The notes beneath the pieces were generated by a model. The model was not told the DNA's origin, searched no databases, and saw only the letters and a program-made list of their open reading frames with translations. From Candidatus Dadabacteria bacterium (lineage in GTDB: Bacteria > Desulfobacterota_D > UBA1144 > Nemesobacterales > Nemesobacteraceae), in NCBI GenBank assembly GCA_022827275.1, contig JAJDTG010000010.1, positions 155,641 through 219,640 of the forward strand: DNA of 64,000 nucleotides, written 5' to 3'. The translations under genes and the position numbers were made by a program. How positions within the stretch are numbered: the first letter of the stretch is position 1; every line of letters begins with the position of its first letter. This document shows, in pieces, positions 3,567 to 29,921 of the stretch.

Positions 3567-6506
3567 ATGTCTGGGAAGGAAAACAAAGAAAAAAACGGCA
3601 TGAAGAGAAGGGATTTCCTGAAAGTGCTCGGGGTAGCCGGCGGTACGGCAGCTGTTGCCGGAAGCTGTTCGGAGCCCGTGGAGCAGATAATCCCTTACGT
3701 CATTCCTCCTGAAAACGTTATTCCCGGAGTACCCAAGTTCTACGCGACGACCTGCAGGGAGTGCTCGTCGGGCTGCGGTCTCGTGGTGAAAAACCGCGAG
3801 GGACGCGCGATCAAGGTTGAAGGCAACCCCGAGAACCCTATAAACAAGGGAAAGACGTGCGCCATGGGCCAGGCTTCCCTACAGGGTCTTTATAATCCCG
3901 ACAGGGTCCGTTCCCCGCTCAGATACAACACTGAAACGCAGAGACTTGAGCCCATAGGCTGGGACCGGGGCGAAGAAATACTCGCGGAAAAGTTAAATTC
4001 CCTCGGTTCGGGTAAGATCGTCTATCTGAGCAACAACGTTTCGGGAACTTACTCGAAATTGGTGGCGAAATTCCTGAGACCTCTGGGAGGAAAGCACTAT
4101 GTTTACGAGACTTTCTCCCACGAACCCATAAGAAAGGCGAATTCAATTGTTTTCGGAAGAGACGAGATTCCTTCCTACAGGATAGACAAGGCAGATTACC
4201 TTCTCTCGTTTGGGGCTGACTATCTTGAAACGTGGCTTTCTGCGGTTTCAAACTCCATAGGATATTCAAAACTAAGAGATGTAGATCACGGGAAAACCGG
4301 CCAGATCGTTCATATAGAGCCGCGCTCCGGAATGACTGCTTCAAACGCAGATACGTGGGTTGCGGCGAAACCGGGCACGGAGCAGTATATTGCTCTCGGG
4401 ATCGCCAACGTTATGATCTCGAAGGGTCTTAACAAGGTTGCCCCGGGGCCGATAGCCAGAATGGTTTCGGGCTACACGCCCGAAAAAGTTGCGGCGCTCA
4501 CCGACGTGTCCGCCGACACCATAAAGAAAATCGCCCGGGACTTCTCGACCTCAAAAAGCTTGGCTATAGGGGGCGGAGCAGCCAACACGGGCTCGAATGC
4601 CACCGAGACCATGGTTGCCGTAAACATACTGAACTACCTAGCCGGGAACATTGGCAAGACGGTTGATTTCTCAGACTCTCTTTCAATCTCGGATGCAAGC
4701 AGCTTCAGCGACATGAAGGAGCTGGTGGAGGAAATGAGGTCGGGCAAGGTGGAAATTCTCATCGTTCATAACGTAAACCCGGTTTTCACGCTTCCCGGGG
4801 AACTGAAAGTTGCCGAGGCTCTTGAAAAAGTGCCTTTTGTCTTAAGCCTCTCTTCATTCCTTGATGAGACTTCCGAGAAGGCGCATCTCGTACTTCCCGA
4901 AAGCACTTCTTTTGAGAGCTGGGGGGACTACAGCCCGAAAAAGAGCGTGACCGGCATCACTCAGCCCGTCATGAGGCCGGTTTTCAATACCAAGTCCGCG
5001 GGCGATACGCTGATCTCCGTTTCAAAGAGTGTAGAGGCGCTCAAGAACACGTTTGCAGAGAAAAAATACTACGACTATCTAAGGAGCGCATGGAAGAAGA
5101 GGGCAGCGGTTCTCTCTCCCGGAACAAGCTTCGAGAAATTCTGGGAAGCACTTCTTGTAAAAGGTTCAGTAACAACCACTCCGGCGCCCGTCAATGTAGC
5201 TCTTTCATCCAGAGTAAGTTCCGTTTCTTTCAGCGACCCGCAGTTCCGCGGAGAAGGGGATTTCCACCTGATCGCTTACCCGTCCCACAGATTTCTTGAC
5301 GGAAGGGGAGCGAACAAGCCGTGGCTTCAGGAACTTCCCGATGCTCTTACCACTTCGGTGTGGGATTCATGGCTTGAGATAAACCCTGCGGTCGCGGCGA
5401 AAATGGGTCTTGAAGACGGTTCTTACGTGAAAGTCGATACCCCGGGGGGGAGTTTCGAAGTGCAGGTTTTCGTCTATGAGGGAATAAGGCCGGATACGAT
5501 TGCCATTCCACTCGGACAGGGACACACTTCCTACGGAAGATACGCGAAGGGAAGAGGGGTGAATCCCTTTGCCCTGCTGCCGGCGGCTACCGACGCGCTC
5601 TCAGGGGGCCCCTCGCTCCTTTCAACCAAGGCGAACGTTTCATCGCTCAGAAAAAGAGATCTGCTCGTAAGGACACAGTACACAAAGAGCCAGGGAGACA
5701 GGCACGTCGCCAAGACCGTCGCCCTTGACCAGATTGGTCATCATAACGGCGCCCATGGAGCGGACCACTCGGAGCACCCCGACTTCTACCCGGAAAAGGA
5801 ATACTCCAAATACAGATGGGGAATGGCCATAGACCTCAACAAGTGCACCGGGTGCGGGGCCTGCGTGGCGGCCTGTTCCGCGGAGAACAACATTCCCTTT
5901 GTAGGAAAGAAACAGATCGCCAAGCGCCGCGAGATGAACTGGATCCGCATAGAGAGATTTTTTGAGAAAAACAGCGACGGAAGCCTTGACGTAAGATTCC
6001 TGCCCATGCTCTGCCAGCAGTGCGGAAACGCCCCCTGCGAACCCGTATGTCCTGTTTTCGCGACTTACCACAATCAAGAGGGGCTAAACGGCATGATATA
6101 CAACCGCTGCGTGGGCACAAGGTACTGTGCGAACAACTGCACTTACAAGGTAAGAAGGTTCAACTGGTATACCTACAAGTTCCCCGAGCCGCTTAACTGG
6201 CAGCTCAATCCCGATGTGACCGTAAGGTCCAAGGGTGTAATGGAAAAATGCACCTTCTGCGTTCAGAGGATAAATCACGGCAAGGACCTCGCCAAGGATA
6301 AAGGAAGGCTTCTTCACGACAGAGAGGTTCTAACGGCCTGCGAGCAGGCTTGCCCAAGCGACGCAATAGTGTTCGGCAACCTGCTTGACGACAAAAGCAA
6401 GGCGTCGGTGCTCTCTGAGGACGATAGGGGCTACAAGGTTTTGGAAGTGGTAAACACCAAGCCCGCGATTACCTATCTTAAGAAAGTCAAACAGGAAAGA
6501 GTGTAA
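3567..6506 (+). CDS. actB: Alternative Complex III subunit ActB (molybdopterin-oxidoreductase-like domain fused to a 4Fe-4S ferredoxin-like domain, Tat-exported)
   Basis: The RRDFLKVLGVAGGTAAVAGS twin-arginine signal is present. A long MopB-like N-terminal domain is followed by C-terminal Cys clusters (CTGCGACVAAC...CQQCGNAPCEPVCP...). I place the start at ATG 3567 with GGAGGGG upstream. The ORF track starts at 3531. Confidence 0.85.
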   Translation: MSGKENKEKNGMKRRDFLKVLGVAGGTAAVAGSCSEPVEQIIPYVIPPENVIPGVPKFYATTCRECSSGCGLVVKNREGRAIKVEGNPENPINKGKTCAMGQASLQGLYNPDRVRSPLRYNTETQRLEPIGWDRGEEILAEKLNSLGSGKIVYLSNNVSGTYSKLVAKFLRPLGGKHYVYETFSHEPIRKANSIVFGRDEIPSYRIDKADYLLSFGADYLETWLSAVSNSIGYSKLRDVDHGKTGQIVHIEPRSGMTASNADTWVAAKPGTEQYIALGIANVMISKGLNKVAPGPIARMVSGYTPEKVAALTDVSADTIKKIARDFSTSKSLAIGGGAANTGSNATETMVAVNILNYLAGNIGKTVDFSDSLSISDASSFSDMKELVEEMRSGKVEILIVHNVNPVFTLPGELKVAEALEKVPFVLSLSSFLDETSEKAHLVLPESTSFESWGDYSPKKSVTGITQPVMRPVFNTKSAGDTLISVSKSVEALKNTFAEKKYYDYLRSAWKKRAAVLSPGTSFEKFWEALLVKGSVTTTPAPVNVALSSRVSSVSFSDPQFRGEGDFHLIAYPSHRFLDGRGANKPWLQELPDALTTSVWDSWLEINPAVAAKMGLEDGSYVKVDTPGGSFEVQVFVYEGIRPDTIAIPLGQGHTSYGRYAKGRGVNPFALLPAATDALSGGPSLLSTKANVSSLRKRDLLVRTQYTKSQGDRHVAKTVALDQIGHHNGAHGADHSEHPDFYPEKEYSKYRWGMAIDLNKCTGCGACVAACSAENNIPFVGKKQIAKRREMNWIRIERFFEKNSDGSLDVRFLPMLCQQCGNAPCEPVCPVFATYHNQEGLNGMIYNRCVGTRYCANNCTYKVRRFNWYTYKFPEPLNWQLNPDVTVRSKGVMEKCTFCVQRINHGKDLAKDKGRLLHDREVLTACEQACPSDAIVFGNLLDDKSKASVLSEDDRGYKVLEVVNTKPAITYLKKVKQERV

Positions 6507-11213: not shown

Positions 11214-11595
11214 GCTCGCACCCCCTGTGGATGGCGCTCACGTTGTACCCAGAGTCCGCGATAAGCTTCGTAATCGTTGCATCGTCAATGGTCAATCCGG
11301 GTTTCATAGCGACCACTATGGAACCTTTGCCAAGATCAACCTTGATTCCCCCAACATCGCCGCGTTTTAGGAAGACTTTTTCCAGGGAACGGGCGCAGAA
11401 ATCGCATACAAGCCCGCTGACCTTGATATTGATAGTGTCTTCACAAGCGGCATTTCCCGTGTCGTTTGAAGCGGCAGAGGGCTCAGCCACCTGACCTTCA
11501 TGGTTATGGTTATGTTCGTGTTCTCCATGTTGCGCAAGGCTTGGGAACACAAAGAAAAACGTCATAAAAAGAATCGCTGTGATTGATATTTTCAT
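11206..11595 (-). CDS. MerP-like periplasmic heavy-metal-binding (HMA domain) protein with a His-rich N-terminus
   Basis: A signal peptide is followed by a HGEHEHNHNHEG stretch and an HMA fold. The metal-binding loop reads GLVCDFCA, a CxxC in the position of the MerP GMTCxxC. Confidence 0.6.
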   Translation of the reverse strand: MKISITAILFMTFFFVFPSLAQHGEHEHNHNHEGQVAEPSAASNDTGNAACEDTINIKVSGLVCDFCARSLEKVFLKRGDVGGIKVDLGKGSIVVAMKPGLTIDDATITKLIADSGYNVSAIHRGCEHG

Positions 11596-11605
11596 AGTTT
11601 TCTCC

Positions 11606-12253
11606 TTAAAATCTTATTATTAAATTGAATAAAATCCCACCTTTGTCGCTGATTCCGACCTCAGCGAGATACTCGTTCTTAAAAAACCGGACAAAGGGCG
11701 TAAACGAGATGTTATCTCTCTCTCCCGTGATGTGGTCAACTTGCAGCATCAGCCAAGTGTGGATATCGCCGTAATCCCCGATATAAGGGGCGATTCCCAC
11801 CCGCGCTTTCTGCCTGAAGAACTTCGCTATGTCTTCGGCGTAGTAGACGCGGTTCTCATAACTCGTAAAGTACCGCCGGGTTTCCCAGTCAAGGGCGATA
11901 TCGGCAAAGGCGGCGGGCTGGGCTTCGCCGTCAGGCACTCCGAGATCACCATAGGCTATGCCAAGACCGCCTTTAAGATAAAAGTTTGCCTGTGAGGTCG
12001 CCGCATTATGGCGTTTCACCAGATAGTTAAGCTGTGCGCCGTGGAACTGCCACTCCTCCCCGCGCCAGTATTCGGTTCTGTATCCTATTGAATACTTGGC
12101 CGTCGGCGAATAATGAACGTGAAGAGAATGCGCGTTCTTGTCGTTTTTCTGCATGACCGTCCAGCCGCCCGGATATGAAACCGGACGGGACAGTGACTGA
12201 GGGGCGTATCCCATCAGGATCACGCAGCATAAAGTGAAAACTGTTAATTTCAT
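11606..12253 (-). CDS. Putative outer-membrane beta-barrel protein of unknown function
   Basis: A signal peptide is present. The sequence shows an alternating amphipathic pattern rich in Y/W/G and ends in a C-terminal Phe (…LIIRF). Confidence 0.4.
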   Translation of the reverse strand: MKLTVFTLCCVILMGYAPQSLSRPVSYPGGWTVMQKNDKNAHSLHVHYSPTAKYSIGYRTEYWRGEEWQFHGAQLNYLVKRHNAATSQANFYLKGGLGIAYGDLGVPDGEAQPAAFADIALDWETRRYFTSYENRVYYAEDIAKFFRQKARVGIAPYIGDYGDIHTWLMLQVDHITGERDNISFTPFVRFFKNEYLAEVGISDKGGILFNLIIRF

Positions 12254-12331
12254 GTTTCCTCCTGAGTATCGATTATGGCTTGGCGACGCCGAGGCGAAGC
12301 CGTTTATAGCGCGCGGACGCGCGCGATTTGC

Positions 12332-12682
12332 TCAGGAGAGGTGTTTTGGAGGTCGGAAATGGGTTTCGATCTGGCGGGAAGACAGAAGCTGATCGGCAAG
12401 AATTCCGACAGCAGATCCCCCGTGATGATCTTTTAATTCTTCAAGCGGCAATGCGTTTATCTGGACACAATGCTGGCAGTCGCAGCCATCGCATTGTTCG
12501 GAGCTTCGATCTTCCGAATCTTTTGTTTCATGGCAAGGCATGTCCATCTCGGCGTCCATCTGCATCTCGGCGGAAGCCTTCTCCATGTTCATTGGACATG
12601 TGGAGAGAGCGTTCGCCACACCGCCGGTAAGAAACAATACGATGCATGTTGCCAGTAGTACTGTTGTCTTCATGGTGTCCAC
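12332..12682 (-). CDS. Putative secreted Cys/Met-rich metal-binding protein
   Basis: A signal peptide is followed by CPMNMEKASAEMQMDAEMDMPCHE...CDGCDCQHC. I prefer this over the Arg-rich overlapping + strand ORF 12328..12630. Confidence 0.4.
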   Translation of the reverse strand: MDTMKTTVLLATCIVLFLTGGVANALSTCPMNMEKASAEMQMDAEMDMPCHETKDSEDRSSEQCDGCDCQHCVQINALPLEELKDHHGGSAVGILADQLLSSRQIETHFRPPKHLS

Positions 12683-13988: not shown

Positions 13989-14603
13989 ATGAAAAACGCA
14001 ACTGTTTTCGCTCTATGCTTTATTTTCGCTTTGATTGCTTTTCCCGGTGACGGGTACTCTAATTCCGGTTCCAGTAATAACAAAAATACGTCCGCTAAAT
14101 CGAGCGGCAAGAAAGAAAGGAGAAAACCAATGGTTCTTATTTCAACTTCGCTGGGCGACATAAAACTCGAGCTTTATGAAGAAGAGGCGCCGATTACCGT
14201 GGGGAATTTTCTTTCCTACGTGGAAGAAGGATTTTACGACAGCACCATATTTCACAGGGTGATAAATAATTTCATGATACAGGGTGGCGGCATCACCGCG
14301 GACATGAAACAAAAGCCGACTAAAGCCCCGATAAAGAATGAGGCTGACAACGGTCTTAGAAATGAACGCGGCACCATAGCAATGGCCAGGACTGCCGAGG
14401 TTAATTCCGCGACGTCGCAGTTTTTTATAAATCACAGGGACAATTCTTTTCTTGATCATGGTGTCCGTGATTTCGGTTATGCGGTGTTCGGAAAAGTGGT
14501 TGAGGGAATTGAAGTTGTTGACAAAATCGCCGCTGTTCAGACCAGACCGGGAGATGTTCCCGTCGAGACGGTGTCTATTTTGTCCATGAAGGTCGTCAAT
14601 TAA
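13989..14603 (+). CDS. Secreted cyclophilin-type peptidyl-prolyl cis-trans isomerase
   Basis: It has a signal peptide and a low-complexity S/N/K linker. The cyclophilin core follows ([14 protein letters not shown]...[21 protein letters not shown]). Confidence 0.85.
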
Positions 14604-14621
14604 CAGACGGTCTCTTTTTTC

Positions 14622-15665
14622 GTGTCGAAAAAGATTACTTACAAAGGCGCCGGTGTTGACGTGGAGGAAGGCGAGAGGTTTGTGCGGCTTATAAAGCCTC
14701 TGGTCGAGTCGACCTACGGTGAAAGCAAAGTAAGCCCGCTCGGGGGTTTTGCGGGCGCTTTTCCGCTTGACGCAGCCGCTTTCCGCGAGCCCCTGCTTGT
14801 ATCGGCCACAGACGGCGTCGGCACGAAGCTCAAGACGGCCTTTTCGGCACGCAGGTTTGATACGATAGGTATAGACTTGGTAGCCATGAGCGTTAACGAC
14901 GTGATTACGTGCGGCGCTAAGCCCCTGTTCTTCCTTGATTATCTGGCTACTTCAAAGCTTGACTCGGAGCAGGCGGCCGAAGTGGTGAAAGGTATCTGCG
15001 AGGGATGTGTCCGGGCGGGATGCGTGCTCATCGGGGGCGAGACGGCGGAGATGCCCGGATTCTACGCCGAAGGGGAGTTTGATCTCGCGGGTTTCTGTGT
15101 CGGAGTGGTGGAGAAAGATCTTTACATTGACGGCGCTGGGGTAGGGCCCGGCGATGCGGTCATCGGGCTTGCTTCAAGCGGTCTTCATTCAAACGGCTAT
15201 TCTCTTGCGAGAAAGGTGCTTTTCGATGTCGGGGGCTATTCGATTGATTCAGAGCCCCAGGGCCTCTCGAGAACCCTTGGAGAGGAACTTCTCACACCCA
15301 CGGTTATATACTCAAGGGCTGTTCTTGGTCTCTGCGAGAAATTCGACGTAAAAGCCCTTGCCCACGTTACGGGCGGCGGGATTCCGGGAAACCTGTCAAG
15401 GGTTATCCCTGACGGGCTTTTTGCGGCAATTGATAGCAGTAGCTGGCCATCTGCTCCCATTTTTGAGCTGATAATGAAAACCGGGAACATAAACCGCGAC
15501 GAGATGTACTCCACGTTTAACTGCGGGATGGGAATGATAGCGGTGCTGCCGCGGGAGCAGGCCGAAGAAGCTTTATCCTTAGCGCGGGACCTGTCGGAAG
15601 CGGCTTACCTTATCGGCGAGATAAAAGAATCTGACTCCTCGGGTTCCAAGGTCCGCATTCTCTGA
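14622..15665 (+). CDS. purM: Phosphoribosylformylglycinamidine cyclo-ligase (AIR synthetase)
   Basis: YKGAGVDVEEGERFV...GGFAGAF...ATDGVGTKL are PurM hallmarks. A GTG start at 14622 is assumed. Confidence 0.85.
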   Translation: MSKKITYKGAGVDVEEGERFVRLIKPLVESTYGESKVSPLGGFAGAFPLDAAAFREPLLVSATDGVGTKLKTAFSARRFDTIGIDLVAMSVNDVITCGAKPLFFLDYLATSKLDSEQAAEVVKGICEGCVRAGCVLIGGETAEMPGFYAEGEFDLAGFCVGVVEKDLYIDGAGVGPGDAVIGLASSGLHSNGYSLARKVLFDVGGYSIDSEPQGLSRTLGEELLTPTVIYSRAVLGLCEKFDVKALAHVTGGGIPGNLSRVIPDGLFAAIDSSSWPSAPIFELIMKTGNINRDEMYSTFNCGMGMIAVLPREQAEEALSLARDLSEAAYLIGEIKESDSSGSKVRIL

Positions 15666-18345: not shown

Positions 18346-19096
18346 GGTTTTCTAATTTTTCCCTGAGCTCTTCGATGTACTCGTAATCCGTCATATCGAG
18401 CTTTATCGGGGTTATCGAGACGTAGCCTTCAAGAACGGACACTATGTCTGAGTTCTCAATTCTCAGGGAATCAAGCTCATTTCCGCCTATCCAGTAATAC
18501 TTCTTCCCCCTGGGATCCGTATTCTCCACTATTGGAGCCTCGTAAACCCTTTTGCCCTGGCGCGTAATCCGTATTCCCTTTATTTCCTCGAGGGGAAGAT
18601 TAGGCACGTTCACATTCAGCAGTGTGTTTTCGGGAAGACCGGCTTTAAGAACGAATTCTGCGGCCACTCTTGAATAGTGGGCTGCGGTTTGGAACAGAAA
18701 GTCTTTTTTCGCCGCGAGCGATACCGCTATGGCGGGGATTTTCATAAGGGTCGCCTCTATCGCGGCGCTTACGGTTCCCGAATACGTTATGTCATCTCCC
18801 AGGTTGGCGGCCATGTTTATTCCGGAGACCACGAGATCGGGTTTCCTGTCTCCCAGAATTCCGTTCACGGCGAGATTCACGCAGTCTGTTGGAGTTCCGT
18901 CCACGGAGAATACTCTCTCTGAAATTTCTTCGATCCTAAGAGGTCTCATGAGGTTAAGCGAGTGGCTCGAGGCGCTCTGATCGCGGTCAGGGGCCACGGT
19001 GTAGACCTCACCCAGGTGAGAGAGGGCCGCTCCAAGCGCTTTTAGGCCTTCTGAGTTCACTCCGTCATCATTTGAGAGCAGTATTTTAGTTTTCAT
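18338..19096 (-). CDS. surE: 5'/3'-nucleotidase SurE
   Basis: MKTKILLSNDDGVNSEGLKAL...YTVAPDRDQSASSHSL are SurE signatures. Confidence 0.85.
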   Translation of the reverse strand: MKTKILLSNDDGVNSEGLKALGAALSHLGEVYTVAPDRDQSASSHSLNLMRPLRIEEISERVFSVDGTPTDCVNLAVNGILGDRKPDLVVSGINMAANLGDDITYSGTVSAAIEATLMKIPAIAVSLAAKKDFLFQTAAHYSRVAAEFVLKAGLPENTLLNVNVPNLPLEEIKGIRITRQGKRVYEAPIVENTDPRGKKYYWIGGNELDSLRIENSDIVSVLEGYVSITPIKLDMTDYEYIEELREKLENHA

Positions 19097-19105
19097 GTCT
19101 GGGAA

Positions 19106-19182
19106 TGGTCGGGGTGACCGGATTCGAACCGGTGACCCCCGGCTCCCGAAGCCGGTGCGCTACCAAGCTGCGCTACACCCCG
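19106..19182 (-). tRNA. tRNA-Pro (anticodon CGG)
   Basis: The minus-strand sequence is CGGGGTGTAGCGCAGCTTGGTAGCGCACCGGCTTCGGGAGCCGGGGGTCACCGGTTCGAATCCGGTCACCCCGACCA. It folds as a 7-bp acceptor stem, D arm, anticodon loop TTCGGGA and a TTCGAAT T-loop, with an encoded CCA. Confidence 0.85.
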
Positions 19183-19304
19183 AACAAAAAGTTCCGGCTA
19201 GATTTTAACCCATCAGGGATTTCTCGCAACAGCCAATCCCGGCAGACGGGGAAAGCTGTATAGGCAACTGAATTTGGCTTGGAAACTGACTTGCGGGTTT
19301 GATT

Positions 19305-19380
19305 TGGTCGGGGTGACCGGACTTGAACCGGTGACCCCCGGTCCCCCAGACCGGTGCGCTACCAACTGCGCCACACCCCG
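19305..19380 (-). tRNA. tRNA-Pro (anticodon GGG)
   Basis: The minus-strand sequence is CGGGGTGTGGCGCAGTTGGTAGCGCACCGGTCTGGGGGACCGGGGGTCACCGGTTCAAGTCCGGTCACCCCGACCA. The anticodon loop is CTGGGGG. Confidence 0.85.
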
Positions 19381-19429
19381 TATTGAACAGAAACCGGATC
19401 AGAGGCGAACAGGACGCGAAGTGGCCCGT

Positions 19430-19780
19430 TCAGAGATCCTGTCTCAGGGATTTTAACTCATCTAGAATTTCGCGCAACAGCATTTTGTCTGAATAGAGGG
19501 GGGAGATATTTCCGCTTCCGCTTTTCTCATCCCTGAGTCTTTTCTGAACTCCCGCTATGGTGAACTTCTGATCGTGGAGCAGGTGCTTTATCTTGTGGAA
19601 GAGATAAATCGTGTCCTTGTCGTAAAGTCTCTGGGACTTCCTCCTGATAGGCCTTACCTCTTTGAACTCGGTTTCCCAGTATCTGAGAACATAAGGCTTT
19701 ACTCCTATGATCTCACTTACTTCTCCTATCTTGAAATAAAGCTTGTCCGGCAGAGACAGATCTGAAAGCATTCCAGACAT
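19430..19780 (-). CDS. MerR-family HTH transcriptional regulator
   Basis: YFKIGEVSEIIGVKPYVLRYWETEF is the MerR-type HTH signature. The protein is short (about 116 aa) with a C-terminal coiled coil. Confidence 0.65.
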   Translation of the reverse strand: MSGMLSDLSLPDKLYFKIGEVSEIIGVKPYVLRYWETEFKEVRPIRRKSQRLYDKDTIYLFHKIKHLLHDQKFTIAGVQKRLRDEKSGSGNISPLYSDKMLLREILDELKSLRQDL

Positions 19781-19836: not shown

Positions 19837-20439
19837 TTATAGGACACCTTTAAAGGATTTTCTATGTATAGGGCAGGGCCCCAGATTTCTCAGGGCACCG
19901 AGGTGCTCTTTTGTGGGATAACCCTTGTGGCGGGAAAAACCGTATCCGGGATATTCCATTTCAATCTCGGTCATGATGCGGTCCCTTGTCACCTTCGCGA
20001 CAATTGAAGCGGCAGCTATTGACGCGCACTTTGAGTCACCTTTTATTATCGCCTTTTGCTCGATAGGGAGAGAAGTCTTTGAGTTGCCGTCTATGAGAAG
20101 GCAGTCCGGTTCTTTCCCCAGGGACAGGACGGCTTTTTCCATTGCCAAAAGCGCCGCCTGCAGGATGTTTATGCGGTCAATCTCCGCGGCCCCGGTTATC
20201 CCGATCGAGTAAGCGAGAGCCTTTTCCCGGATTTGCTCGAAAAGCTCATTGCGCCTTTTCTCGGAAAGAGTCTTGGAGTCTCTGAGTCCGTGAATAGGGC
20301 GGTTTTCATCAAGTATGACGGCGCCTGCCACGACCGGCCCGGCCAGACATCCTCTTCCGGCTTCGTCGACGCCGGCAACGATCCTCCCGGATCCTGAAAT
20401 TCTATTTTCGGTGTGCAAAAGGCAGTCGGATTCAGACAA
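19837..20439 (-). CDS. rnhB: Ribonuclease HII
   Basis: IVAGVDEAGRGCLAGPVVAGAVIL...DSKTLSEKRR matches the RNase HII active-site region. Confidence 0.85.
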   Translation of the reverse strand: MSESDCLLHTENRISGSGRIVAGVDEAGRGCLAGPVVAGAVILDENRPIHGLRDSKTLSEKRRNELFEQIREKALAYSIGITGAAEIDRINILQAALLAMEKAVLSLGKEPDCLLIDGNSKTSLPIEQKAIIKGDSKCASIAAASIVAKVTRDRIMTEIEMEYPGYGFSRHKGYPTKEHLGALRNLGPCPIHRKSFKGVL

Positions 20440-20447
20440 TTTCCGTG

Positions 20448-21323
20448 TTACGTGAGCCCATAGCTCTCAAGTTCCCTCTTCAGTCTCTTGAGGTTCTCTC
20501 CCGAAAGCTCATAAAGCGGGGCTCTTACCTCGGGGCTTATTTTCCCCATCACGGCCAAAGCGGCCTTTACAGGTATCGGGTTTGATTCCACGAAGAGAAC
20601 TCTGCTAAGCGGGAGAAGGCGGTAGTGAAGCTCTTTAGCCCTCTCAAGTTCTCCTCTTGCAAAGGAGTTGTACATTTCCGATACGTCTTGGGGAGCTATG
20701 TTCGCCGTCACGCTTATGAAACCCTTGCCTCCGACTGCTAAAAGGGGATAGTTAACCGCGTCGTCCCCAGAGAGAAGGACCAGGTCCTCTCCGCAGAGAA
20801 AAACAATTCTGCTTGCCTGCTCAAGCGAGCCTGAGGCTTCCTTGATGCCGATTATGCTCTCGCAGTCGCAAAAAAGTCTCTCCACGGTTTCCGGCTCTAC
20901 GTTTACGACCGTGCGCCCGGGCACGTTGTAGAGTATCAGCGGGAGAGATGTCTTGTCTGCAATTGTGCGGAAATGCCGGTAGATTCCCTCTTGGGTTGGC
21001 TTGTTGTAGTAAGGAGTTACCACAAGGGCTGCGTCCGCGCCGGCCTGCTCCGCGAATTTCGTTAGGCGCAGGGCTTCCTCAGTGCTGTTTGATCCTGTGC
21101 CTGCAACCACTGGGATCCTTCCCCTTACCGTCTCCACTGTGAATTTTATTACTTCTTCGTGCTCAGCGTGAGAGAGAGTGGGGGATTCTCCCGTGGTCCC
21201 GACCGGAACTATACCGTGGGTTCCGCTCTCTATGTGGAACTCTATTAACTCTTCTAGCCGTCCGTAGTCAACGGCGCCGTCACTAAACGGCGTTACTATT
21301 GCTACTATAGAACCGTGTATCAA
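20448..21323 (-). CDS. dapA: 4-hydroxy-tetrahydrodipicolinate synthase
   Basis: GSIVAIVTPFSDGAVDYGRLEELIEFHIESGTHGIVPVGTTGESPTLS is the DapA signature. 291 aa. Confidence 0.9.
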   Translation of the reverse strand: MIHGSIVAIVTPFSDGAVDYGRLEELIEFHIESGTHGIVPVGTTGESPTLSHAEHEEVIKFTVETVRGRIPVVAGTGSNSTEEALRLTKFAEQAGADAALVVTPYYNKPTQEGIYRHFRTIADKTSLPLILYNVPGRTVVNVEPETVERLFCDCESIIGIKEASGSLEQASRIVFLCGEDLVLLSGDDAVNYPLLAVGGKGFISVTANIAPQDVSEMYNSFARGELERAKELHYRLLPLSRVLFVESNPIPVKAALAVMGKISPEVRAPLYELSGENLKRLKRELESYGLT

Positions 21324-21347
21324 TTTTTTCTCCGTCCCAAGAGGCTG

Positions 21348-21875
21348 CTATACCCTAACTTTTTTACCGCAGGAAGAACAGAAAACGCTTGCGGCCGGAA
21401 TCCTTGCTCCGCAGTGCATGCAGAAAAAAGTCTCTCCCGCCTCGGTGGAGAGTTCGATGGCCTGGGCCATCACCTCTTCGAATTTCCCCGAGAGATCCTC
21501 AAACTCTTTTCTGTACTGCTGGTGAAACATTATCACGTCTTCCGCGTCAACTGTTTTTATTTCAAGCTTGAGTCCTTTGCTTCTGGTGGAACCGAACTTG
21601 TGATTCGTTATGGTGTTAAGCTCTATGTCCCTGAGAACGTTTGCTTTGGAGCTGTTTTTAAGTATCAGCACCCTTTTTTTCGTAAGCATCAGGATGCTTC
21701 TGAAAAAAGTGTTTCTGTCTACCCACGCCCTCGGCTTGTAAGTGCAGCTGAGGGTCTGAACCGTGAGCAGCACGGAATCGTCTTCCCCGAGCAGCTCCTT
21801 CAGTTCATGGGAGTCGATCTTCGTCGGCGCGAGAAAAAAATCCGAAAGCTTTTTCAAAACACCTGTTTCAGACAT
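21348..21875 (-). CDS. Hypothetical protein with a PH-like domain and a C-terminal zinc ribbon
   Basis: 175 aa. The C-terminus reads CMHCGARIPAASVFCSSCGKK (CxxC-x10-CxxC). The N-terminal region resembles bacterial PH/GRAM-like domains. Confidence 0.35.
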   Translation of the reverse strand: MSETGVLKKLSDFFLAPTKIDSHELKELLGEDDSVLLTVQTLSCTYKPRAWVDRNTFFRSILMLTKKRVLILKNSSKANVLRDIELNTITNHKFGSTRSKGLKLEIKTVDAEDVIMFHQQYRKEFEDLSGKFEEVMAQAIELSTEAGETFFCMHCGARIPAASVFCSSCGKKVRV

Positions 21876-23517: not shown

Positions 23518-23889
23518 CTAATATTCTCCTGTCAAAGCATCCCACTCAAAAGAGGTGAGAAAACGCTTATCAACAACAGCTATGCCGTTTATCTTACAAT
23601 CGGAATCAAATACGTATGCAATATTAAACAACGTAGGCTGTTTCTTGCCTTTTTTCTTGGCAACAGCGATTCGGATTATTCCCCCTTTTAAATTTTCATC
23701 AGACAACGGATCATTCCGAATCATTTTTAACCGTTCCCATCCTCCTTCCTCTTTTAAATGTTGAATGACCGCCGCCTCGGCAGTTTCAAGATCTTTTATC
23801 CCTTGACAGTGTTTTTGAACTGCCAAAGCGAAGATAGTACCTTCGCAAAGAAGAAATCCTGTCACGATCAATAGAATTAACCTTTTCAT
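23518..23889 (-). CDS. Small secreted hypothetical protein (signal peptide), inside the low-GC island
   Basis: 123 aa with an N-terminal signal peptide (MKRLILLIVTGFLLCEGTIFALA). I recognised no family. The local sequence is AT-rich. Confidence 0.35.
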   Translation of the reverse strand: MKRLILLIVTGFLLCEGTIFALAVQKHCQGIKDLETAEAAVIQHLKEEGGWERLKMIRNDPLSDENLKGGIIRIAVAKKKGKKQPTLFNIAYVFDSDCKINGIAVVDKRFLTSFEWDALTGEY

Positions 23890-24159: not shown

Positions 24160-27100
24160 TCAGGATTTTGCAACATCAATTACACAGACTGATATCTTGC
24201 GTTGCTCGTCGGTCGTGAGGCTGTTAATTAATCGTTCTTTAAGCTCCATGGCACTTTGCGGACGTGTTCCCGATCCTGGGGGCCGACATGACTCTTTGCC
24301 AAACCAGAATACTAAATAGATGCCATAGCCATCTGTCTCTGGGTCACGGGTATATTTCGCAATCAGTTGGCTTTTTATTGCACTCCATAAATCTTGATTA
24401 TTGCTTCTTTTTATCTCGATTGGAATATTACACATAGCCTTGTATGCGATACGAATATCTGACCTCTTGTCATCTGCATAACGGCCTTCCGGTTGTGGAT
24501 CAATTCCTAATGGGTTGAGTTTTATTCTTAGGTCCGAAAGCAATATATCTCGACAGAAGTTTTCAATGCGGGGTTTTGCGGGCTTGTTTTCTGTATCCAT
24601 ATCCCAATATTGACGCCAGTCAGATGTGTTGCCATCACGGATGTTCTTAGCAAGGTCAGTCAAAATATCTATTGTCAGTGCTGACAGGTCCGCCGCATTT
24701 GCGGGGTTCTTGTTGTCTAGAGTTTCAAGTACCTGGTTGACGCTGAAATGGCTGAAACTGGCTTCGCGACGAGCTGACTTCTGTGTGCGAAGAGCCTCCG
24801 TGAGGTATTGTTTCCATGAGAGTAACTCGTCATCTGATGAGAGTCTTTCAAGTGCTTCAGTAGCGCTTGGCGATTGAATCGATGTCAGTTGCTGAATTAA
24901 TCTATGAACAAGATTTGCCGCTTCGGTCGATGGACTGACCCAACCGCTTTCCTCTGGGTCTGATAGCTTTGGTTTGTCAGAAGCTTCAATCAGTCTATAT
25001 TTGAACAGAAGTCCAAGCGCATCCTCGGGTGACAGCCAAGTGAAGGGTGATGAATGTCCGATTGTCCGAATCAGAAATTCCAGTGCCGGGACATCTAGGC
25101 GTTTGATCAGTTTATCCGGGAATTCTTTGATGCATTCCAGTAGATTTTTAACTCTAAGCTCTCGACCGGTTAGACATGTCTCTAATTTTTCAATAAAACT
25201 TGAAGGCGAAACGATAAGTCCGGCTGTAAGCCAGTAGACACGTTGGGCTATATCCATGCTAGAATAGGAGAGCTTTCTTTTGACTAATTTTAGGAAGGGT
25301 TCTTCATCGCAGTGAAGAAGTGCCGCTCTGAGCAGATAATTCAATCCCGACAGTTGCTGCTTAACGCATCGTACAGAAAATTTCTTCAGAAGTTGTAAAG
25401 TGGCAAGGTTCGCCGCTTTTGCGTAATCATCTCGGAACGCCAGTCTGTACAGATTTGAGAGAGTCTCTTTGCTTTTACGCATTCTAGATAGAGCACATGA
25501 GGTTAAAACATCTGAAACTATATCTGGATTGGACACAAGCAATTTCTGGTACCAAAGAGGATGGGAATTTAAGAAACTTGTCGGCAGTGGTGCGTTGTAA
25601 TAAAAAGCAATGGCTTGGCGCAACTGCTTTTCTTTAATGGGTATTTCTTCAAACTCAGGGTTGTTTCTGAATATCTCTTCCATGCCGGCTAAAAAGGGGA
25701 GTGCTAGATAATGTGCTTCATTGTTCTCTCTTAGCTGTATGATTTCAGCTTCATCCGGTATGTCGGAGCGAATAAGCGATTCCTGAAAAGCCTTGAGAAC
25801 TGTTTCTACTAGGTATTCATTGCCACCGAGAAAGTCGTGCAAGTGGTCTGCGGGGTTACCACTTGGAAAGTTTGCGTTTTCCCCGAAAAACACTCTGGCT
25901 AAGTTGTGGAGCAAACGCGGCGAGCATCGGTTTTCACTTAGTACTTCTTTGTGTGATTTCAGATAGTTGATCCGTTTAAGTAGTTCCTGTTGCTCTCTTG
26001 CTTTTTGTTCCTCGGTAAAATTTTCTTGCTGCCTTGATATATTACGGTAATTAGATTGCGATGCTAAGAGTAGCTGTTTAAGGTCGGGTTTGTCAGCAAG
26101 GGCTTCCTCAATAACTTCTTCAGAAAGCCCCTTATTGAAAATGTTGTTTTCTATAGTGTGAGCCGCCGTGTGCAGGAAAAATTTTTTGAAATTTTCGTCA
26201 GTTGAAGCTATTGCGTGCTTAAGGCACCAAAGTCCGAAGTCTTGTGGAGGAATACATTCGAGACCACGGTCTCTGAAAAGTCTCCGGTCGATTTCATGAG
26301 GTTTTACATCGTCGCATTTCATCCATTCTTCAAACACCGCCTTCTGCATTTCTGGATGATCGTTCAACCATGAACGAATTTCCATCTTGTGGCTACCCCA
26401 GTCCACAATCTGACAGTCCGATACGATCCAGAGCCAGATTGAGAAACGGTCCAGAGGAACTTGGTCCTCCGCCATAGCAAGGAATCTAGCTAACCAGGCT
26501 GGAAACACCGTGGAAAAGAAGCTGAATTGCTTTTTTTCGGTTTCGTATTCAGCGAAAAAACTGTCAGAACGTCCGTAAAGCCCGTCAAGCAACTCAGCAA
26601 GTTGAGTGGTTGTTGTTTGTTGTAATATATCTCTAAGCCAGAAGAACCTGTAACTTCCGCTAAGATTCGGGGCTTTTGGTTCTCTGAAATATTTCCAGAT
26701 ATCCGAAGAAGAAAGAATGTCTGGATAAAGCTCTTTAAGGAGAATTCCCAGCAGCTGATCATCTGGGTCTGATATCGACTCCGCATTCACGTCCTCTAAC
26801 AGATTTGTCATTTGAGTTAGGGAATGGTTGCCATTTTTTCCTTGTTGGATAAACGCACGGAGGGCGTTATCTCTGACATTCGGTGGCCAACTGTCATCTC
26901 TAACAATTTCCAGCAGAGCATCTCCAAGTTCAGGTATGGATGATCCGTGTTGAAGAGTTTCTAGCAGTAACCTGACAAGTGATTGTTGCGTATGGTTTCT
27001 TTCCGGATCAGTTAGAACGTTTTGAAAAAATTCCCGCACATCCGGCGTAGCCAGATATTCCAAGTGAGAATCATGTCCGATTAGCTGTGTATACCATGGA

Positions 27101-28317
27101 TTTTTCTTCGTTTCATCGGCTATATGGTTCAAAATTTGGTGCTTCTCATCAATGGAGAATCCCCAAACGTCACCATAGAGAATTGTTCCAAGTGGGTCAC
27201 GCTCGATAATCTCTCTTCTGCTTTGCGGACTGTGTGCCGCAAGCCAGGCAGAAAGACCGCGCAACTCAGACACAATTCCACCATCATATCCCGTCATCAA
27301 GGCGAGTACTCGTCTGACAGGAAGTCCCTCTTGTATTAGTTTTGCAAGATATTGTCCGCCTAGAAATTCGGCAACTTGTCTGTGGATTGGACTTACATGG
27401 GTTTCAGTGGGAGATTCAAAGGGAGATTCAAATAGCTTGGTGCTAAGCACATGGTGAAAAACTTCTTGGTCTTCGGTGTGTATTCTTTTCAGATGTATGT
27501 ATTCATGGCTTGTCTCGTTATGCGTGAGAGTGTATCCGGCATGACCGGTAAGAAGTTGTATTGCGCAAAGCCTTCCGGCTTCATTAAGCAAGCTGCGAAT
27601 ATCGCTAGAATAACGTTTAACTAATTCATGCCCTTGATTGTGTTCTTCAAGTAATTTACGGCAGGCGAGACCGAACGTTTCCATTCGGGTTTCCGGCCAA
27701 TTCCCGTCAGCAACTGCTGACGCCAGCATCTTGAGATTCTGGGGATTTACGAGCAAGATGCCGATTCCTTTTTCCTCAGCTGAAGCAACAAATAGTTCTG
27801 GATTATTAACGCCGTGGTTGCAACACAGAATTTTAAGGATGTCCTCGCGGGATAATGGGTCAAGGCGTAAAACCTTGAGCTTTCCGTCTGGTGACACATC
27901 TTTCAAATGATTTCTGTCGTTAGCTCCGAACCAGTCGGCTTCACGACAGGATAGACGGAAACGAGGACACCCTAAATCCTGAAGTTTTGCCCGAATTTGG
28001 TCAAAGGGTGTGCGCTGGTCGGACACTCCTGCACGCATTTCGTCGAGACCGTCAATAAACAATGTTGTTCCATGCCATTCAGGGCGATTTTCAAACGTGA
28101 TGAAGTTACGTGCAGTGACATAATGGCCTTCTTCTTGGGCTGCTTCTCTTTTAAATGCTTCCGTTTTTCCGGCACCTGGGGGACCGAGCAGCACGTAGCA
28201 ACTGTTGCCCCTGAATTCTTCCAACGGCATTGAAGAGGATCTATCGTCATGACTGCCGGTTTCAGGGATCTCGGTACATGTGCGGGGAGCAAAGTAATTC
28301 ATGATTTCTCGAACCAA
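24160..28317 (-). CDS. Large (1385 aa) STAND-type P-loop NTPase with NACHT-like motifs, a long alpha-helical repeat region and a C-terminal PD-(D/E)xK-like motif
   Basis: Walker A is LLGPPGAGKTE (about aa 40-50). A NACHT-like Walker B FIDGLDE follows, then RFRLSCRE, which is sensor-1-like (hhhhTSR). About 850 aa of helical repeats come next. The C-terminus reads ENFCRD…ADDKRSDIRIAYKAMCNIPIEIKRS (an E…D…ExK arrangement). Local GC is about 47%, against roughly 58-60% in the flanks. The start overlaps the upstream ATPase gene by 19 nt. Confidence 0.55.
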   Translation of the reverse strand: MVREIMNYFAPRTCTEIPETGSHDDRSSSMPLEEFRGNSCYVLLGPPGAGKTEAFKREAAQEEGHYVTARNFITFENRPEWHGTTLFIDGLDEMRAGVSDQRTPFDQIRAKLQDLGCPRFRLSCREADWFGANDRNHLKDVSPDGKLKVLRLDPLSREDILKILCCNHGVNNPELFVASAEEKGIGILLVNPQNLKMLASAVADGNWPETRMETFGLACRKLLEEHNQGHELVKRYSSDIRSLLNEAGRLCAIQLLTGHAGYTLTHNETSHEYIHLKRIHTEDQEVFHHVLSTKLFESPFESPTETHVSPIHRQVAEFLGGQYLAKLIQEGLPVRRVLALMTGYDGGIVSELRGLSAWLAAHSPQSRREIIERDPLGTILYGDVWGFSIDEKHQILNHIADETKKNPWYTQLIGHDSHLEYLATPDVREFFQNVLTDPERNHTQQSLVRLLLETLQHGSSIPELGDALLEIVRDDSWPPNVRDNALRAFIQQGKNGNHSLTQMTNLLEDVNAESISDPDDQLLGILLKELYPDILSSSDIWKYFREPKAPNLSGSYRFFWLRDILQQTTTTQLAELLDGLYGRSDSFFAEYETEKKQFSFFSTVFPAWLARFLAMAEDQVPLDRFSIWLWIVSDCQIVDWGSHKMEIRSWLNDHPEMQKAVFEEWMKCDDVKPHEIDRRLFRDRGLECIPPQDFGLWCLKHAIASTDENFKKFFLHTAAHTIENNIFNKGLSEEVIEEALADKPDLKQLLLASQSNYRNISRQQENFTEEQKAREQQELLKRINYLKSHKEVLSENRCSPRLLHNLARVFFGENANFPSGNPADHLHDFLGGNEYLVETVLKAFQESLIRSDIPDEAEIIQLRENNEAHYLALPFLAGMEEIFRNNPEFEEIPIKEKQLRQAIAFYYNAPLPTSFLNSHPLWYQKLLVSNPDIVSDVLTSCALSRMRKSKETLSNLYRLAFRDDYAKAANLATLQLLKKFSVRCVKQQLSGLNYLLRAALLHCDEEPFLKLVKRKLSYSSMDIAQRVYWLTAGLIVSPSSFIEKLETCLTGRELRVKNLLECIKEFPDKLIKRLDVPALEFLIRTIGHSSPFTWLSPEDALGLLFKYRLIEASDKPKLSDPEESGWVSPSTEAANLVHRLIQQLTSIQSPSATEALERLSSDDELLSWKQYLTEALRTQKSARREASFSHFSVNQVLETLDNKNPANAADLSALTIDILTDLAKNIRDGNTSDWRQYWDMDTENKPAKPRIENFCRDILLSDLRIKLNPLGIDPQPEGRYADDKRSDIRIAYKAMCNIPIEIKRSNNQDLWSAIKSQLIAKYTRDPETDGYGIYLVFWFGKESCRPPGSGTRPQSAMELKERLINSLTTDEQRKISVCVIDVAKS

Positions 28318-29573
28318 TCCTTTGCCGGCACCGACAAAAATTCTTCAATCGGGATTCCGCCTTCGCCGACCAGTTCGCAGCGCAGAGGGTTGAACCGTTT
28401 CTCAAACTCTTCCAGTCCACTCATGTTTACTTGCTTTAGACTGCTTTTGACTTCAAAAGCAACAATCTTGGAACCCCGTTCCAGAACGAAATCCACCTCG
28501 TAATTCTTATCCCTCCAGTAATAGAGATGGACATTATCCCGTATTCCTGTGTTGAACAGATGGGCGCCTACTGTGCTTTCGACAAGACGTCCCCAAAAAC
28601 TGCGGTCCGCTTTTGCCTCTTCAAAGGTGTATCCTGAAGAGGCTGACATAAGCGCGGTGTTAAGAACGTTAAGCTTAGGACTTGACGCCTTGCTGCGGGA
28701 AACGCCGCCCGCATACTTCTGAAGACCGGAAATAAGTCCTGCATTTGAGAGTAAGTCCAGATAGTGGGCCAAAGTTGTCGTGTTGCCGGCGTCTTTGAGC
28801 TGGCCGAGCATTTTATTGTATGAAAGTATCTGGCCTGAATACGCCGCGCCTAGTTCAAAAAGTCTTTTTAATAAAGCGGGTTTGTCCACGCGTCGCATCG
28901 CAAGGATATCGCGCTCGATGTTGGGTTCAACCAGAGCGCCGGTAATATACCGTTGCCAGTCTTCCTGCTTTTGAATTAACGGAGCTCCGCCTGGATAACC
29001 TCCAAAATAGATGTAGCTCTGCAGATCAAAATCAAACGCCGAGGACATCTCCGCAAATGACCAGTGAGCGAGATGTATAGGGAAAAAGCGTCCGGCCAGA
29101 CTTTCGCTTAACCCCGTCTGCATAATCAGGGGAGCGGAACCGAGCAAAACGACATGAAGGGGACAGTCATTCCATTTGTCCTCGTCCCACAAACCCTTAA
29201 CGGTTTCCGACCAGTTGGGGATTTTCTGGATTTCGTCAAACACAAGAATAAACCCGCGTTCCGAACGCCTAGCCTCTCTTCTGGCTTGTTCCCACCTGCG
29301 TACGAGCCACCTTGAATCCTTTTCCACGCTTATTGAGATGCTGGTTTCATCCGGTGTGGTAATTGAATCTTGTTCTGTATCTGGCAACGGATAGAAGGCG
29401 GTTGATTCGGGTTTGTCTACGGGCAGATATAGACTGCGCAGGTCGCATTGATACAGCGCTTGGCGAATAAGAGTGGTTTTGCCTGACTGACGGGGGCCGG
29501 TAATAATTGTAAGGAGTTTGGGTGCCTCGTTCAGGCGTTCGACGAGATCTGATATTATAGGTCGTTCGTACAT
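28299..29573 (-). CDS. AAA_14 / DUF4143-type ATP-binding protein (P-loop ATPase with a C-terminal restriction-endonuclease-like DUF4143 domain)
   Basis: 424 aa. The Walker A motif reads IITGPRQSGKTTLI, Walker B is ILVFDEIQKIP, and the C-terminus reads YEVDFVLERGSKIVAFEVKSS. This is the widespread AAA_14+DUF4143 architecture. The gene is low in GC. Confidence 0.6.
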   Translation of the reverse strand: MYERPIISDLVERLNEAPKLLTIITGPRQSGKTTLIRQALYQCDLRSLYLPVDKPESTAFYPLPDTEQDSITTPDETSISISVEKDSRWLVRRWEQARREARRSERGFILVFDEIQKIPNWSETVKGLWDEDKWNDCPLHVVLLGSAPLIMQTGLSESLAGRFFPIHLAHWSFAEMSSAFDFDLQSYIYFGGYPGGAPLIQKQEDWQRYITGALVEPNIERDILAMRRVDKPALLKRLFELGAAYSGQILSYNKMLGQLKDAGNTTTLAHYLDLLSNAGLISGLQKYAGGVSRSKASSPKLNVLNTALMSASSGYTFEEAKADRSFWGRLVESTVGAHLFNTGIRDNVHLYYWRDKNYEVDFVLERGSKIVAFEVKSSLKQVNMSGLEEFEKRFNPLRCELVGEGGIPIEEFLSVPAKDWFEKS

Positions 29574-29586
29574 TTCCGTGGATTGA

Positions 29587-29622
29587 ATTACTCTATTGAG
29601 AACTTTTACTCAATAGAGTAAT
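29587..29622. promoter_or_regulatory. Perfect 14-bp inverted repeat (ATTACTCTATTGAG-N8-CTCAATAGAGTAAT), 14-49 nt upstream of the ATPase gene start; candidate operator or 5'UTR structure
   Basis: Read directly from the sequence. The arms lie at 29587-29600 and 29609-29622. Confidence 0.4.
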
Positions 29623-29921
29623 TCATGTATGAGTAAAGTCAAATCACAAACTACGTTCCCGTAAATTTCTCGATAATTAGCACGGTCGAAGCAGCAGCTC
29701 GTGTTTATAAGAAAAGCAGCTTCTTATCCTAACCAGCGTCCGGTTTTCTCACCTGTCCGCACATCTGACTTGAGCAGGACCATTTGACGAATTTAATTTA
29801 ATTCTTGAGTATCTTTATCTGAGACTGGTTAGGCAGTTCAATCTCGAAATGCCCCAGGCGCACGAAGTCGTAAAAGCGCTACTTTAAGGACATAAAAATC
29901 TGAACATGCGAGGTAGAAGAT

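Follow-up and report, generated by a model that had tools for sequence, protein, structure and literature searches.

The window analyzed here is a 64,000-nucleotide (nt) stretch of a metagenomic contig (237 kb) from Candidatus Dadabacteria. On its minus strand lies a two-gene cassette that we examined as a candidate anti-phage system. Its upstream gene encodes a small P-loop ATPase with a nuclease-type fold, here called the partner, its downstream gene a large NACHT-type protein, here called the receptor, and both are preceded by a dyad-symmetric element. The original prediction, made from the sequence without database searches, described two overlapping minus-strand genes with an upstream inverted repeat. 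Both open reading frames (ORFs) were confirmed, and the repeat has perfect 17-nt arms. The large ORF is real: 1380 amino acids (aa) and more than 4,495 database homologs are far beyond chance.

24160..28317, minus strand: larger ORF, 1385 aa from a TTG start
24160..28302, minus strand: large gene from its ATG, 1380 aa, an Erebus/EruA (Avs10)-like NACHT protein
28299..29573, minus strand: smaller ORF, 424 aa from an ATG start; the partner gene, with an AAA_14 P-loop ATPase, a winged-helix-like segment and DUF4143 (PD-(D/E)xK fold)
28299..28302, minus strand: ATGA, the stop/start overlap of the partner and large genes, from the sequence; the junction reads ...AAATCATGAATTAC
29584..29625, minus strand: dyad-symmetric element with perfect 17-nt arms (29584-29600/29609-29625)

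Independent gene calls of the same DNA start the large gene at ATG 28302, which makes the protein five codons shorter than the longest ORF. Based on these calls and on the junction sequence, the partner stop and the receptor start likely share the ATGA. The overlap is then 4 nt, and the 19 nt first reported is the mechanical value obtained from the longest ORF. Of 79 related loci, 64 have a 4-nt overlap (ATGA/GTGA) at this junction and another 10 overlap by 1 nt. The GC content of the cassette is 45.7% (large gene 44.8%, small gene 49.3%), and that of the remaining window 51.6%. No other 5.46-kb stretch of the window is as low in GC, in line with the low-GC island of the original description. 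The figures given there (47% against 58-60%, a gap of 11-13 points) were not reproduced, as the contrast is about 6 points. The flanks carry housekeeping genes: asd, dapA, rnhB, electron transfer flavoprotein (ETF) subunits and a solute-binding protein. The protein cluster to which Asd belongs has members named Candidatus Dadabacteria.

Architecture and family placement of the two proteins

NCBIfam alone places the large protein. It matches NF058535, "NACHT domain-containing antiphage protein EruA", with 943.8 bits (E = 2.2e-283), and the alignment is collinear in a single stretch, from residue 23 to 1382 against positions 8 to 1317 of a profile of 1318. Other receptors that occur with a partner (the paired clade) score 896-939 on this model, and stand-alone plasmid relatives 776, 777 and 1035. 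The match to HyoA (NF058534) is weaker, at 218 bits over residues 135-1383 (cutoff 1200). Judged by sequence, the receptor joins a known family as a new member that scores slightly below threshold. The original prediction could not place the arrangement in any defence system, and this no longer holds, since the large protein is a full-length homolog of antiphage_EruA (944 bits) and the small protein falls in PDC-S01 of PADLOC.

Pfam and PADLOC gave no significant match to the large protein. The Pfam NACHT model (PF05729) did not match it at E up to 0.1, and sequence searches of the PDB returned nothing for either protein. Its only precomputed match is a weak one to PF28130 (DUF8371). In the literature, the term 'EruA' led to an E. 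coli regulator unrelated to this protein. We infer from the name and from the HyoA/Hypnos parallel that EruA is Erebus. Erebus and Hypnos reportedly originate from van den Berg et al. 2024. With bNACHT64, the two are grouped as Avs10 by Lee et al. (Nature 2026, PMC13581612), who found that the Avs10 sensor wraps the HK97-fold major capsid protein and that co-expression leads to cell death. In the preprint version of that study, effector-domain mutations abolished cell death in all families tested.

The receptor features, all on the minus strand, are:

27043..28302: NACHT NTPase module, residues 1-420, based on invariant residues, a structural model and Foldseek
28162-28185: Walker A, GPPGAGKT, based on conservation
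28039-28056: Walker B, IDGLDE, based on conservation
27943-27963: sensor-1-like RFRLSCR, based on conservation
24808..27042: putative helical sensor region, residues 421-1165, which evolves faster than the rest of the protein
24163..24807: predicted C-terminal PD-(D/E)xK nuclease domain, residues 1166-1380
24409-24564: catalytic E1247, D1282, E1296 and K1298, based on invariant residues

In 19 homologs with 48-73% identity, G40, G43, G45 and K46, the D84-G-L-D87-E88 stretch and R116/S118/C119/R120 are invariant, as are E1247, D1282, E1296, K1298 and Q1312 at the C-terminus. The Walker A, Walker B and RFRLSCRE segments picked out in the original prediction are thus invariant or near-invariant across these proteins. 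The receptor carries both motifs of the NACHT/STAND test, Walker A GxxxxGK[ST] and Walker B D[GAS]hDE, the latter being the NACHT signature given in the bNACHT preprint. A model of residues 1-560 (predicted local distance difference test score, pLDDT, of 80) has NLRC4 (4kxf) as its best Foldseek match (E = 3.8e-9, template modelling score about 0.5, query-normalised), followed by NLRP3, NAIP5 and Avs4. At the level of the predicted structure, the N-terminus is confirmed as an NLRC4-like NACHT module consisting of a nucleotide-binding domain, a helical part and a winged helix. The NACHT assignment made at the outset is therefore retained on the basis of the NOD-like receptor (NLR)-like fold and the D[GAS]hDE motif, without a counterpart in the Pfam NACHT model.

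Modelling also confirmed a PD-(D/E)xK fold at the C-terminus, with the order alpha-beta-beta-beta-alpha-beta, in which helix 1 carries the E, strand 2 the D and strand 3 the ExK. The domain is a predicted metal-dependent nuclease. The nuclease-type spacing first read from the sequence of this end, for which structure prediction had been proposed, thus corresponds to a modelled fold with invariant E/D/ExK residues. The NTPase starts at about residue 30 and the nuclease occupies the last 215 residues. This layout, initially not recognised from any known defence system, is the same in eight stand-alone plasmid relatives (25-35% identity, 776-1035 bits on the EruA model), which have the same C-terminal domain and the same invariant residues. 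It is therefore a family trait and not a novelty.

The intervening region had been described as about 850 aa of HEAT/ARM/TPR-like repeats. Its helical character is seen in the model, where residues 310-560, including 421-560, are all-helical. As to the repeat type, Pfam gives only a sub-threshold match to HEAT (E = 0.015). Mean identity to 114 homologs is 0.34 at residues 561-800 and 0.65 at the NTPase and nuclease ends. A sensor that is the least conserved part is the pattern expected of an arms-race surface under phage pressure.

The partner features, also on the minus strand, are:

29472..29498: Walker A, GPRQSGKTT, residues 26-34
29232..29237: Walker B, D113-E114, at least 97% conserved
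28704..28886: putative winged-helix DNA-binding segment, residues ~230-290, including AGNTTTLAxYLxLL
28446..28580: nuclease core E332...E359-x-D361...E374-V-K376, all at least 97% conserved

The original reading of the partner as a 424-aa P-loop ATPase with a DUF4143 C-terminus agrees with Pfam, where AAA_14 (3.6e-22, 79 bits, cutoff 27) and DUF4143 (7e-31, 108 bits, cutoff 28) both lie above threshold. Against the PADLOC model PDLC04791 (PDC-S01) the partner scores 548 bits (2.1e-165), with residues 1-421 aligned to positions 1-394 of 395; other PDC-S01 models reach at most 154 bits. Among 77 partner sequences, the Walker A residues G26, P27, R28, Q29, G31, K32, T33 and T34 are at least 97% conserved, as is a dense run comprising A262, G263, N264, T266, T267, L268, A269, Y271, L274 and L275. 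Based on the architecture of this ATPase class, residues ~230-290 would form a winged helix-turn-helix. The conserved residues indicate an intact catalytic motif. By classification, DUF4143/COG1373 is a PD-(D/E)XK superfamily member of unknown function, and PDC-S01 is a single-gene phage-defence candidate in PADLOC, identified through guilt-by-embedding. In one survey, it was the fourth most common putative defence gene in prokaryotes.

Distribution of the pairing and its genomic surroundings

A scan of genome contigs with the single sequence found no relatives, whereas a profile scan, using one genome per species, found at least 538 loci. We examined 80 of these (locus numbers carry the prefix L). 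The hosts include Nitrospirales, Binatia, Latescibacterota, Alpha- and Gammaproteobacteria, Gemmatimonadota, Acidobacteriota, Thermodesulfobacteriota, Spirochaetia, Acidimicrobiales and others, from more than 10 phyla. In all 80 loci, which were retrieved through the receptor, a partner homolog (55-69% identity) lies directly upstream and ends at the start of the large gene. The conserved linkage that the original prediction proposed to survey is thus present throughout. The partner is more conserved than the receptor (38-53% identity), and other AAA_14/DUF4143 genes within the same loci are 22-25% identical to it. No partner was found within 5-6 kb of nine stand-alone relatives (eight on plasmids, one on a viral contig). 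The single-gene organisation of these relatives does not apply to the paired clade, where a coupled partner always precedes the receptor. Nor does the single-gene definition of PDC-S01 describe the loci found here by way of the receptor.

On a predicted viral contig, a divergent pair (receptor 33%, partner 50% identity) has as neighbours an integrase, a replication protein of phage type and an ABC-3C system. In a neighbour-joining tree, which is based on a small sample and has no bootstrap, all paired receptors including this one form one clade, with the nine stand-alone relatives outside. Since the paired receptors are monophyletic and the relatives outside lack the partner, the pairing looks, from these sequences, as if it had been acquired once in evolution and retained ever after.

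Some loci depart from the simple arrangement. Two complete cassettes occur at distant sites in one genome (L020 and L030, OZ250159.1, a Candidatus Rariloculaceae metagenome-assembled genome, MAG); their partners are 82% identical and their receptors 73-75% identical in all three regions. In L039, a second, partial partner copy (4551-5471; 307 aa aligned at 60% identity) lies upstream of an intact cassette, about 3 kb away. A few partner homologs among the 80 loci are frameshifted or cut by contig ends. The partner is frameshifted or truncated in L026 (8737-9998), L052 (2436-3668) and L068 (9741-10001), where the receptor match is also shortened, which indicates that the cassette decays occasionally. 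The hosts of L003-L082 are almost all uncultured MAGs. Many of their isolate names look like those of marine-sponge or aquatic-symbiont projects, and the paired clade may be concentrated in such communities.

The genomic surroundings of the two groups differ. Stand-alone relatives sit among Ppl, Abi, SIR2, TIR, toxin-antitoxin, Schlafen-like and integrase genes. Placement in defence islands, which the original prediction had raised, is not seen for the window cassette and is largely negative for the paired clade, based on 111 nearest-neighbour ORFs. With neighbourhoods largely of non-defence genes, the defence reading for this clade rests on homology and not on neighbourhood. Stand-alone Erebus-like genes on Pantoea, Agrobacterium and Bradyrhizobium plasmids (L083:1312-3993 and 11567-12514; L087:444-4612; L086:9388-10251) are annotated as 'hypothetical protein' though flanked by Ppl, Abi, TIR and SIR2; these records predate the EruA model. 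In L007, a Gammaproteobacteria MAG, a 558-aa ORF (20046-21722, minus strand) about 6 kb from the cassette, which is itself related to reported capsid sensors, has a P22-coat-protein-like region (E = 3e-12) and may be a prophage remnant or an encapsulin-like gene.

In the window, a 123-aa ORF (23518-23889, minus strand) lies between the cassette and rpiB, in the lowest-GC stretch (38.6%), and has a signal-peptide-like N-terminus. Pfam, PADLOC and NCBIfam gave no match to it. We rejected it as a third component, as it has no homolog in 80 other related loci and recurs only in L001 and L002, which contain the same cassette. It may have arrived together with the cassette, or separately.

A conserved promoter-like dyad ahead of the pair

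The dyad upstream of the partner gene recurs with the cassette. Its 34-nt consensus, TTACGCTATTGAGTA-N4-TACTCAATAGCGTAA, corresponds to window positions 29588-29621. Of 79 related loci, 72 have a single copy of the motif ahead of the small gene; its end usually lies 9-10 nt from the start codon. Over 73 ungapped aligned instances, which are not phylogenetically independent, 73.5% of cells pair, compared with 32-41% in slid controls. Covariation is 0.221 versus 0.05-0.10, and none of 500 shuffles reached the observed 0.221. Two hexamers within the aligned element resemble those of a promoter:

29608..29613, minus strand: -35-like hexamer TTGAGT, in the 5' arm of the dyad; columns 15-20 are T70 T73 G73 A72 G67 T69 of 73
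29585..29590, minus strand: -10-like hexamer TAATTC, consensus TAAnnT; columns 38-43 are T72 A72 A54 n n T62 of 73

The spacer between them is 17 nt. The -10-like hexamer ends about 6 nt ahead of the start codon in most loci, and 11 nt ahead of it in the window, from which we infer that the mRNA is leaderless or near-leaderless. A sigma-70 consensus scan did not flag a promoter for the cassette; the promoter reading comes from the cross-locus alignment. These sequence patterns suggest a promoter with a leaderless or near-leaderless transcript, in which the dyad is an operator over the -35 hexamer and the spacer. Boxes of host regulators (FNR, CIRCE and LexA types) were set aside, since the motif travels with the cassette across phyla.

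Alternatively, the dyad may act as a hairpin in transcribed RNA (or in single-stranded DNA) that affects translation or stability, and not as a double-stranded operator. The predicted RNA fold is very stable (-23.8 kcal/mol, z -7.1), and the outer stem has compensatory changes, with pair 11-36 being GC in 29 instances, UA in 14, AU in 6 and UG in 5. The strand asymmetry of G·U-compatible mismatches, 60 cells on the sense strand versus 23 on the antisense, also fits RNA or a single-stranded hairpin better and counts against a purely double-stranded operator, with the limit that these counts, too, are not phylogenetically independent. On the other side, the near-invariant bases map to the -35 hexamer, the 17-nt spacer and the -10 hexamer, and the predicted transcription start lies downstream of the whole hairpin. 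The apical sequence is itself conserved, and not the pairing alone. Rfam has no family for the dyad, and chance miRNA-like matches were far below threshold. We regard the hairpin as a serious but minority possibility, and an operator as somewhat more likely.

Additional copies of the motif occur in a few loci. In L007, two more core motifs (ATTGAGTAAAATTACTCAATATATACACA) lie outside the cassette, at 15265-15282 and 19562-19579. One is just upstream of an NYN-domain ORF (14524-15261, minus strand) and the other upstream of a 187-aa ORF (18954-19517, minus strand) without a Pfam match. The element could control other genes in trans, or it could be a repeated promoter module. In L044, L058 and L062 (Pseudomonadales MAGs) there is a second, often perfect dyad about 70-75 nt before the start codon of the small gene. 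A second dyad is also found in L013 (8621-8638), and the first copy, at about 9 nt, is seen in L044 and L013. A second dyad about 70 nt upstream indicates that the control element can be duplicated in tandem.

Proposed function, alternatives and relation to known systems

We consider it probable that the cassette is a compact two-gene anti-phage system in the Candidatus Dadabacteria chromosome, combining an Avs10-type receptor with an obligate, translationally coupled PDC-S01 subunit. By homology to Avs10, the receptor sensor would bind a structural protein conserved among phages, with the HK97-fold major capsid protein as the most likely candidate. This contact would lift autoinhibition, and the NACHT module would oligomerise with ATP. 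By analogy to Avs10 and Avs7, the clustered nuclease domains would then degrade DNA, so that infection is aborted. The partner may have two roles. It could bind the dyad over its own promoter, keeping expression of the toxic pair low, and it could act alongside the receptor, either as another ATP-dependent nuclease or as a subunit that engages DNA. A more specific version, which we offer tentatively and think rather unlikely, is a two-component NLR whose capsid-sensing receptor depends on the PDC-S01-type ATPase-nuclease as an essential helper, loosely like plant sensor/helper NLR pairs, with the dyad as the helper's own operator.

Several observations weigh against a coupled anti-phage system of this kind. 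The receptor score (943.8 bits) is below the NF058535 equivalog cutoff of 1000. Its sensor is only about 25-35% identical to those of the plasmid relatives, and the trigger could differ. One PDC-S01 representative gave no protection against T4, T5 and T7 in E. coli B. A purely regulatory role of the partner would leave its intact nuclease motif unexplained. The neighbours of paired cassettes (111 nearest ORFs from about 59 loci) are mostly glyoxalase, NUDIX, cytochrome and transporter genes with few defence matches, and the housekeeping flanks in the window provide a context without independent support for defence.

These neighbourhoods also bear on whether the cassette is anti-phage at all in this clade. 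It could be a selfish or addiction module, or a DNA-transaction system (repair, mobile-element control) built on a borrowed NLR-like scaffold. The lower GC of a cassette inserted between housekeeping genes, surroundings that are mostly metabolic or housekeeping in the paired clade generally, a PDC-S01/COG1373 family without demonstrated function, and published analyses noting non-defence STAND clades interspersed with defence clades would all fit. We nevertheless hold this to be highly doubtful, given the full-length collinearity with a family experimentally shown to defend and the fast-evolving sensor between conserved enzymatic ends. The divergent pair, moreover, adjoins ABC-3C and an integrase, and a patchy spread over more than 10 phyla is typical of horizontally transferred defence genes. 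It is likewise improbable that the cassette is a miniature defence island of two independent genes, a stand-alone PDC-S01 beside a stand-alone Erebus-type receptor. PDC-S01 is defined as single-gene and is very abundant, Erebus-like relatives on plasmids and one viral contig do without a partner, and each protein has its own NTPase and nuclease. Linkage in 80 of 80 loci, with the same order and orientation in more than 10 phyla, argues against mere adjacency. So do the 4-nt or 1-nt overlap in 74 of 79 loci, the single conserved promoter-like element ahead of the pair and the monophyly of the paired receptors. The partner, furthermore, belongs to a tight dedicated subfamily (548 bits on PDLC04791 versus at most 154 on the other models), from which the other AAA_14/DUF4143 genes in these loci are remote at 22-25% identity.

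A division of labour in which the partner serves control only is somewhat easier to reconcile with the data, and still unlikely. The partner would be an antitoxin-like inhibitor or a repressor of the toxic receptor that binds the dyad, the receptor or both and is released or inactivated on infection, with a nuclease motif that is vestigial or used for DNA binding. Its upstream position and translational coupling resemble the antitoxin-toxin order, it is more conserved than the receptor, and its helix-rich segment between the ATPase and nuclease parts is very highly conserved. The conserved dyad overlaps the -35 hexamer and spacer, and the cassette has no other DNA-binding gene. Against this, conservation of at least 97% across phyla at Walker A, Walker B and the E/D/ExK residues of the partner speaks for an enzyme that is still active and against a purely regulatory role, and stand-alone Erebus relatives do without a partner. 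We favour a coupled anti-phage pair whose partner may both regulate and act.

The receptor alone adds little, as its family is already named and partly characterised. No description of the partner-receptor pairing and the promoter dyad was found in the literature searched, and the undescribed part appears to be the obligate pairing together with the conserved cis-element. Its value is a strict operon-level association, across more than 10 phyla, between a validated type of phage sensor and the abundant, functionally blank PDC-S01/COG1373. This makes the pairing a testable setting both for the function of AAA_14/DUF4143 proteins and for whether bacterial NLR-like receptors need a helper ATPase-nuclease. 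If true, the helper proposal would give the AAA_14/DUF4143 (COG1373) family its first functional foothold and would describe a self-regulating module that moves between phyla with its own control site. The promoter-overlapping dyad, conserved between phyla, provides a handle on how toxic immune receptors are silenced. The hosts are mostly uncultured, probably marine or symbiont lineages, in which defence systems are poorly sampled.

Among known systems, Erebus/EruA is closest to the receptor. The two align end to end, share the order of NACHT, helical sensor and PD-(D/E)xK domain with E/D/ExK/Q residues, and are about 1300-1400 aa long. The window receptor differs in falling just under the cutoff of 1000 and in its identity of about 25-35% to stand-alone relatives. 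The paired clade always has the upstream AAA_14/DUF4143 partner and a promoter dyad, which the nine stand-alone relatives lack, and is usually found outside defence islands. Hypnos (HyoA) is homologous over most of the length and shares the Avs10 grouping, although its match is far weaker than that of EruA. With PDC-S01 the partner shares a full-length PDLC04791 match, both Pfam domains and intact ATPase and PD-(D/E)xK motifs. It differs in that PDC-S01 is catalogued as single-gene, whereas here it never stands alone and always opens an operon shared with an NLR-like receptor.

More distant likenesses are seen with Avs1-5, Avs7 and bNACHT, which belong to the STAND NTPases, have nuclease effectors and large helical sensors, and combine pattern recognition of conserved phage proteins with oligomerisation and DNA cleavage. 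The canonical Avs/AVAST order is an N-terminal effector, a central NTPase and a C-terminal sensor. In contrast, the window receptor has its NTPase at the N-terminus and its nuclease at the extreme C-terminus, as in the Erebus family. The eukaryotic NLRs NLRC4, NLRP3 and NAIP5 have only 11-13% sequence identity to the receptor and differ in their sensors and effectors, yet they provide the best structural matches to its residues 1-560.

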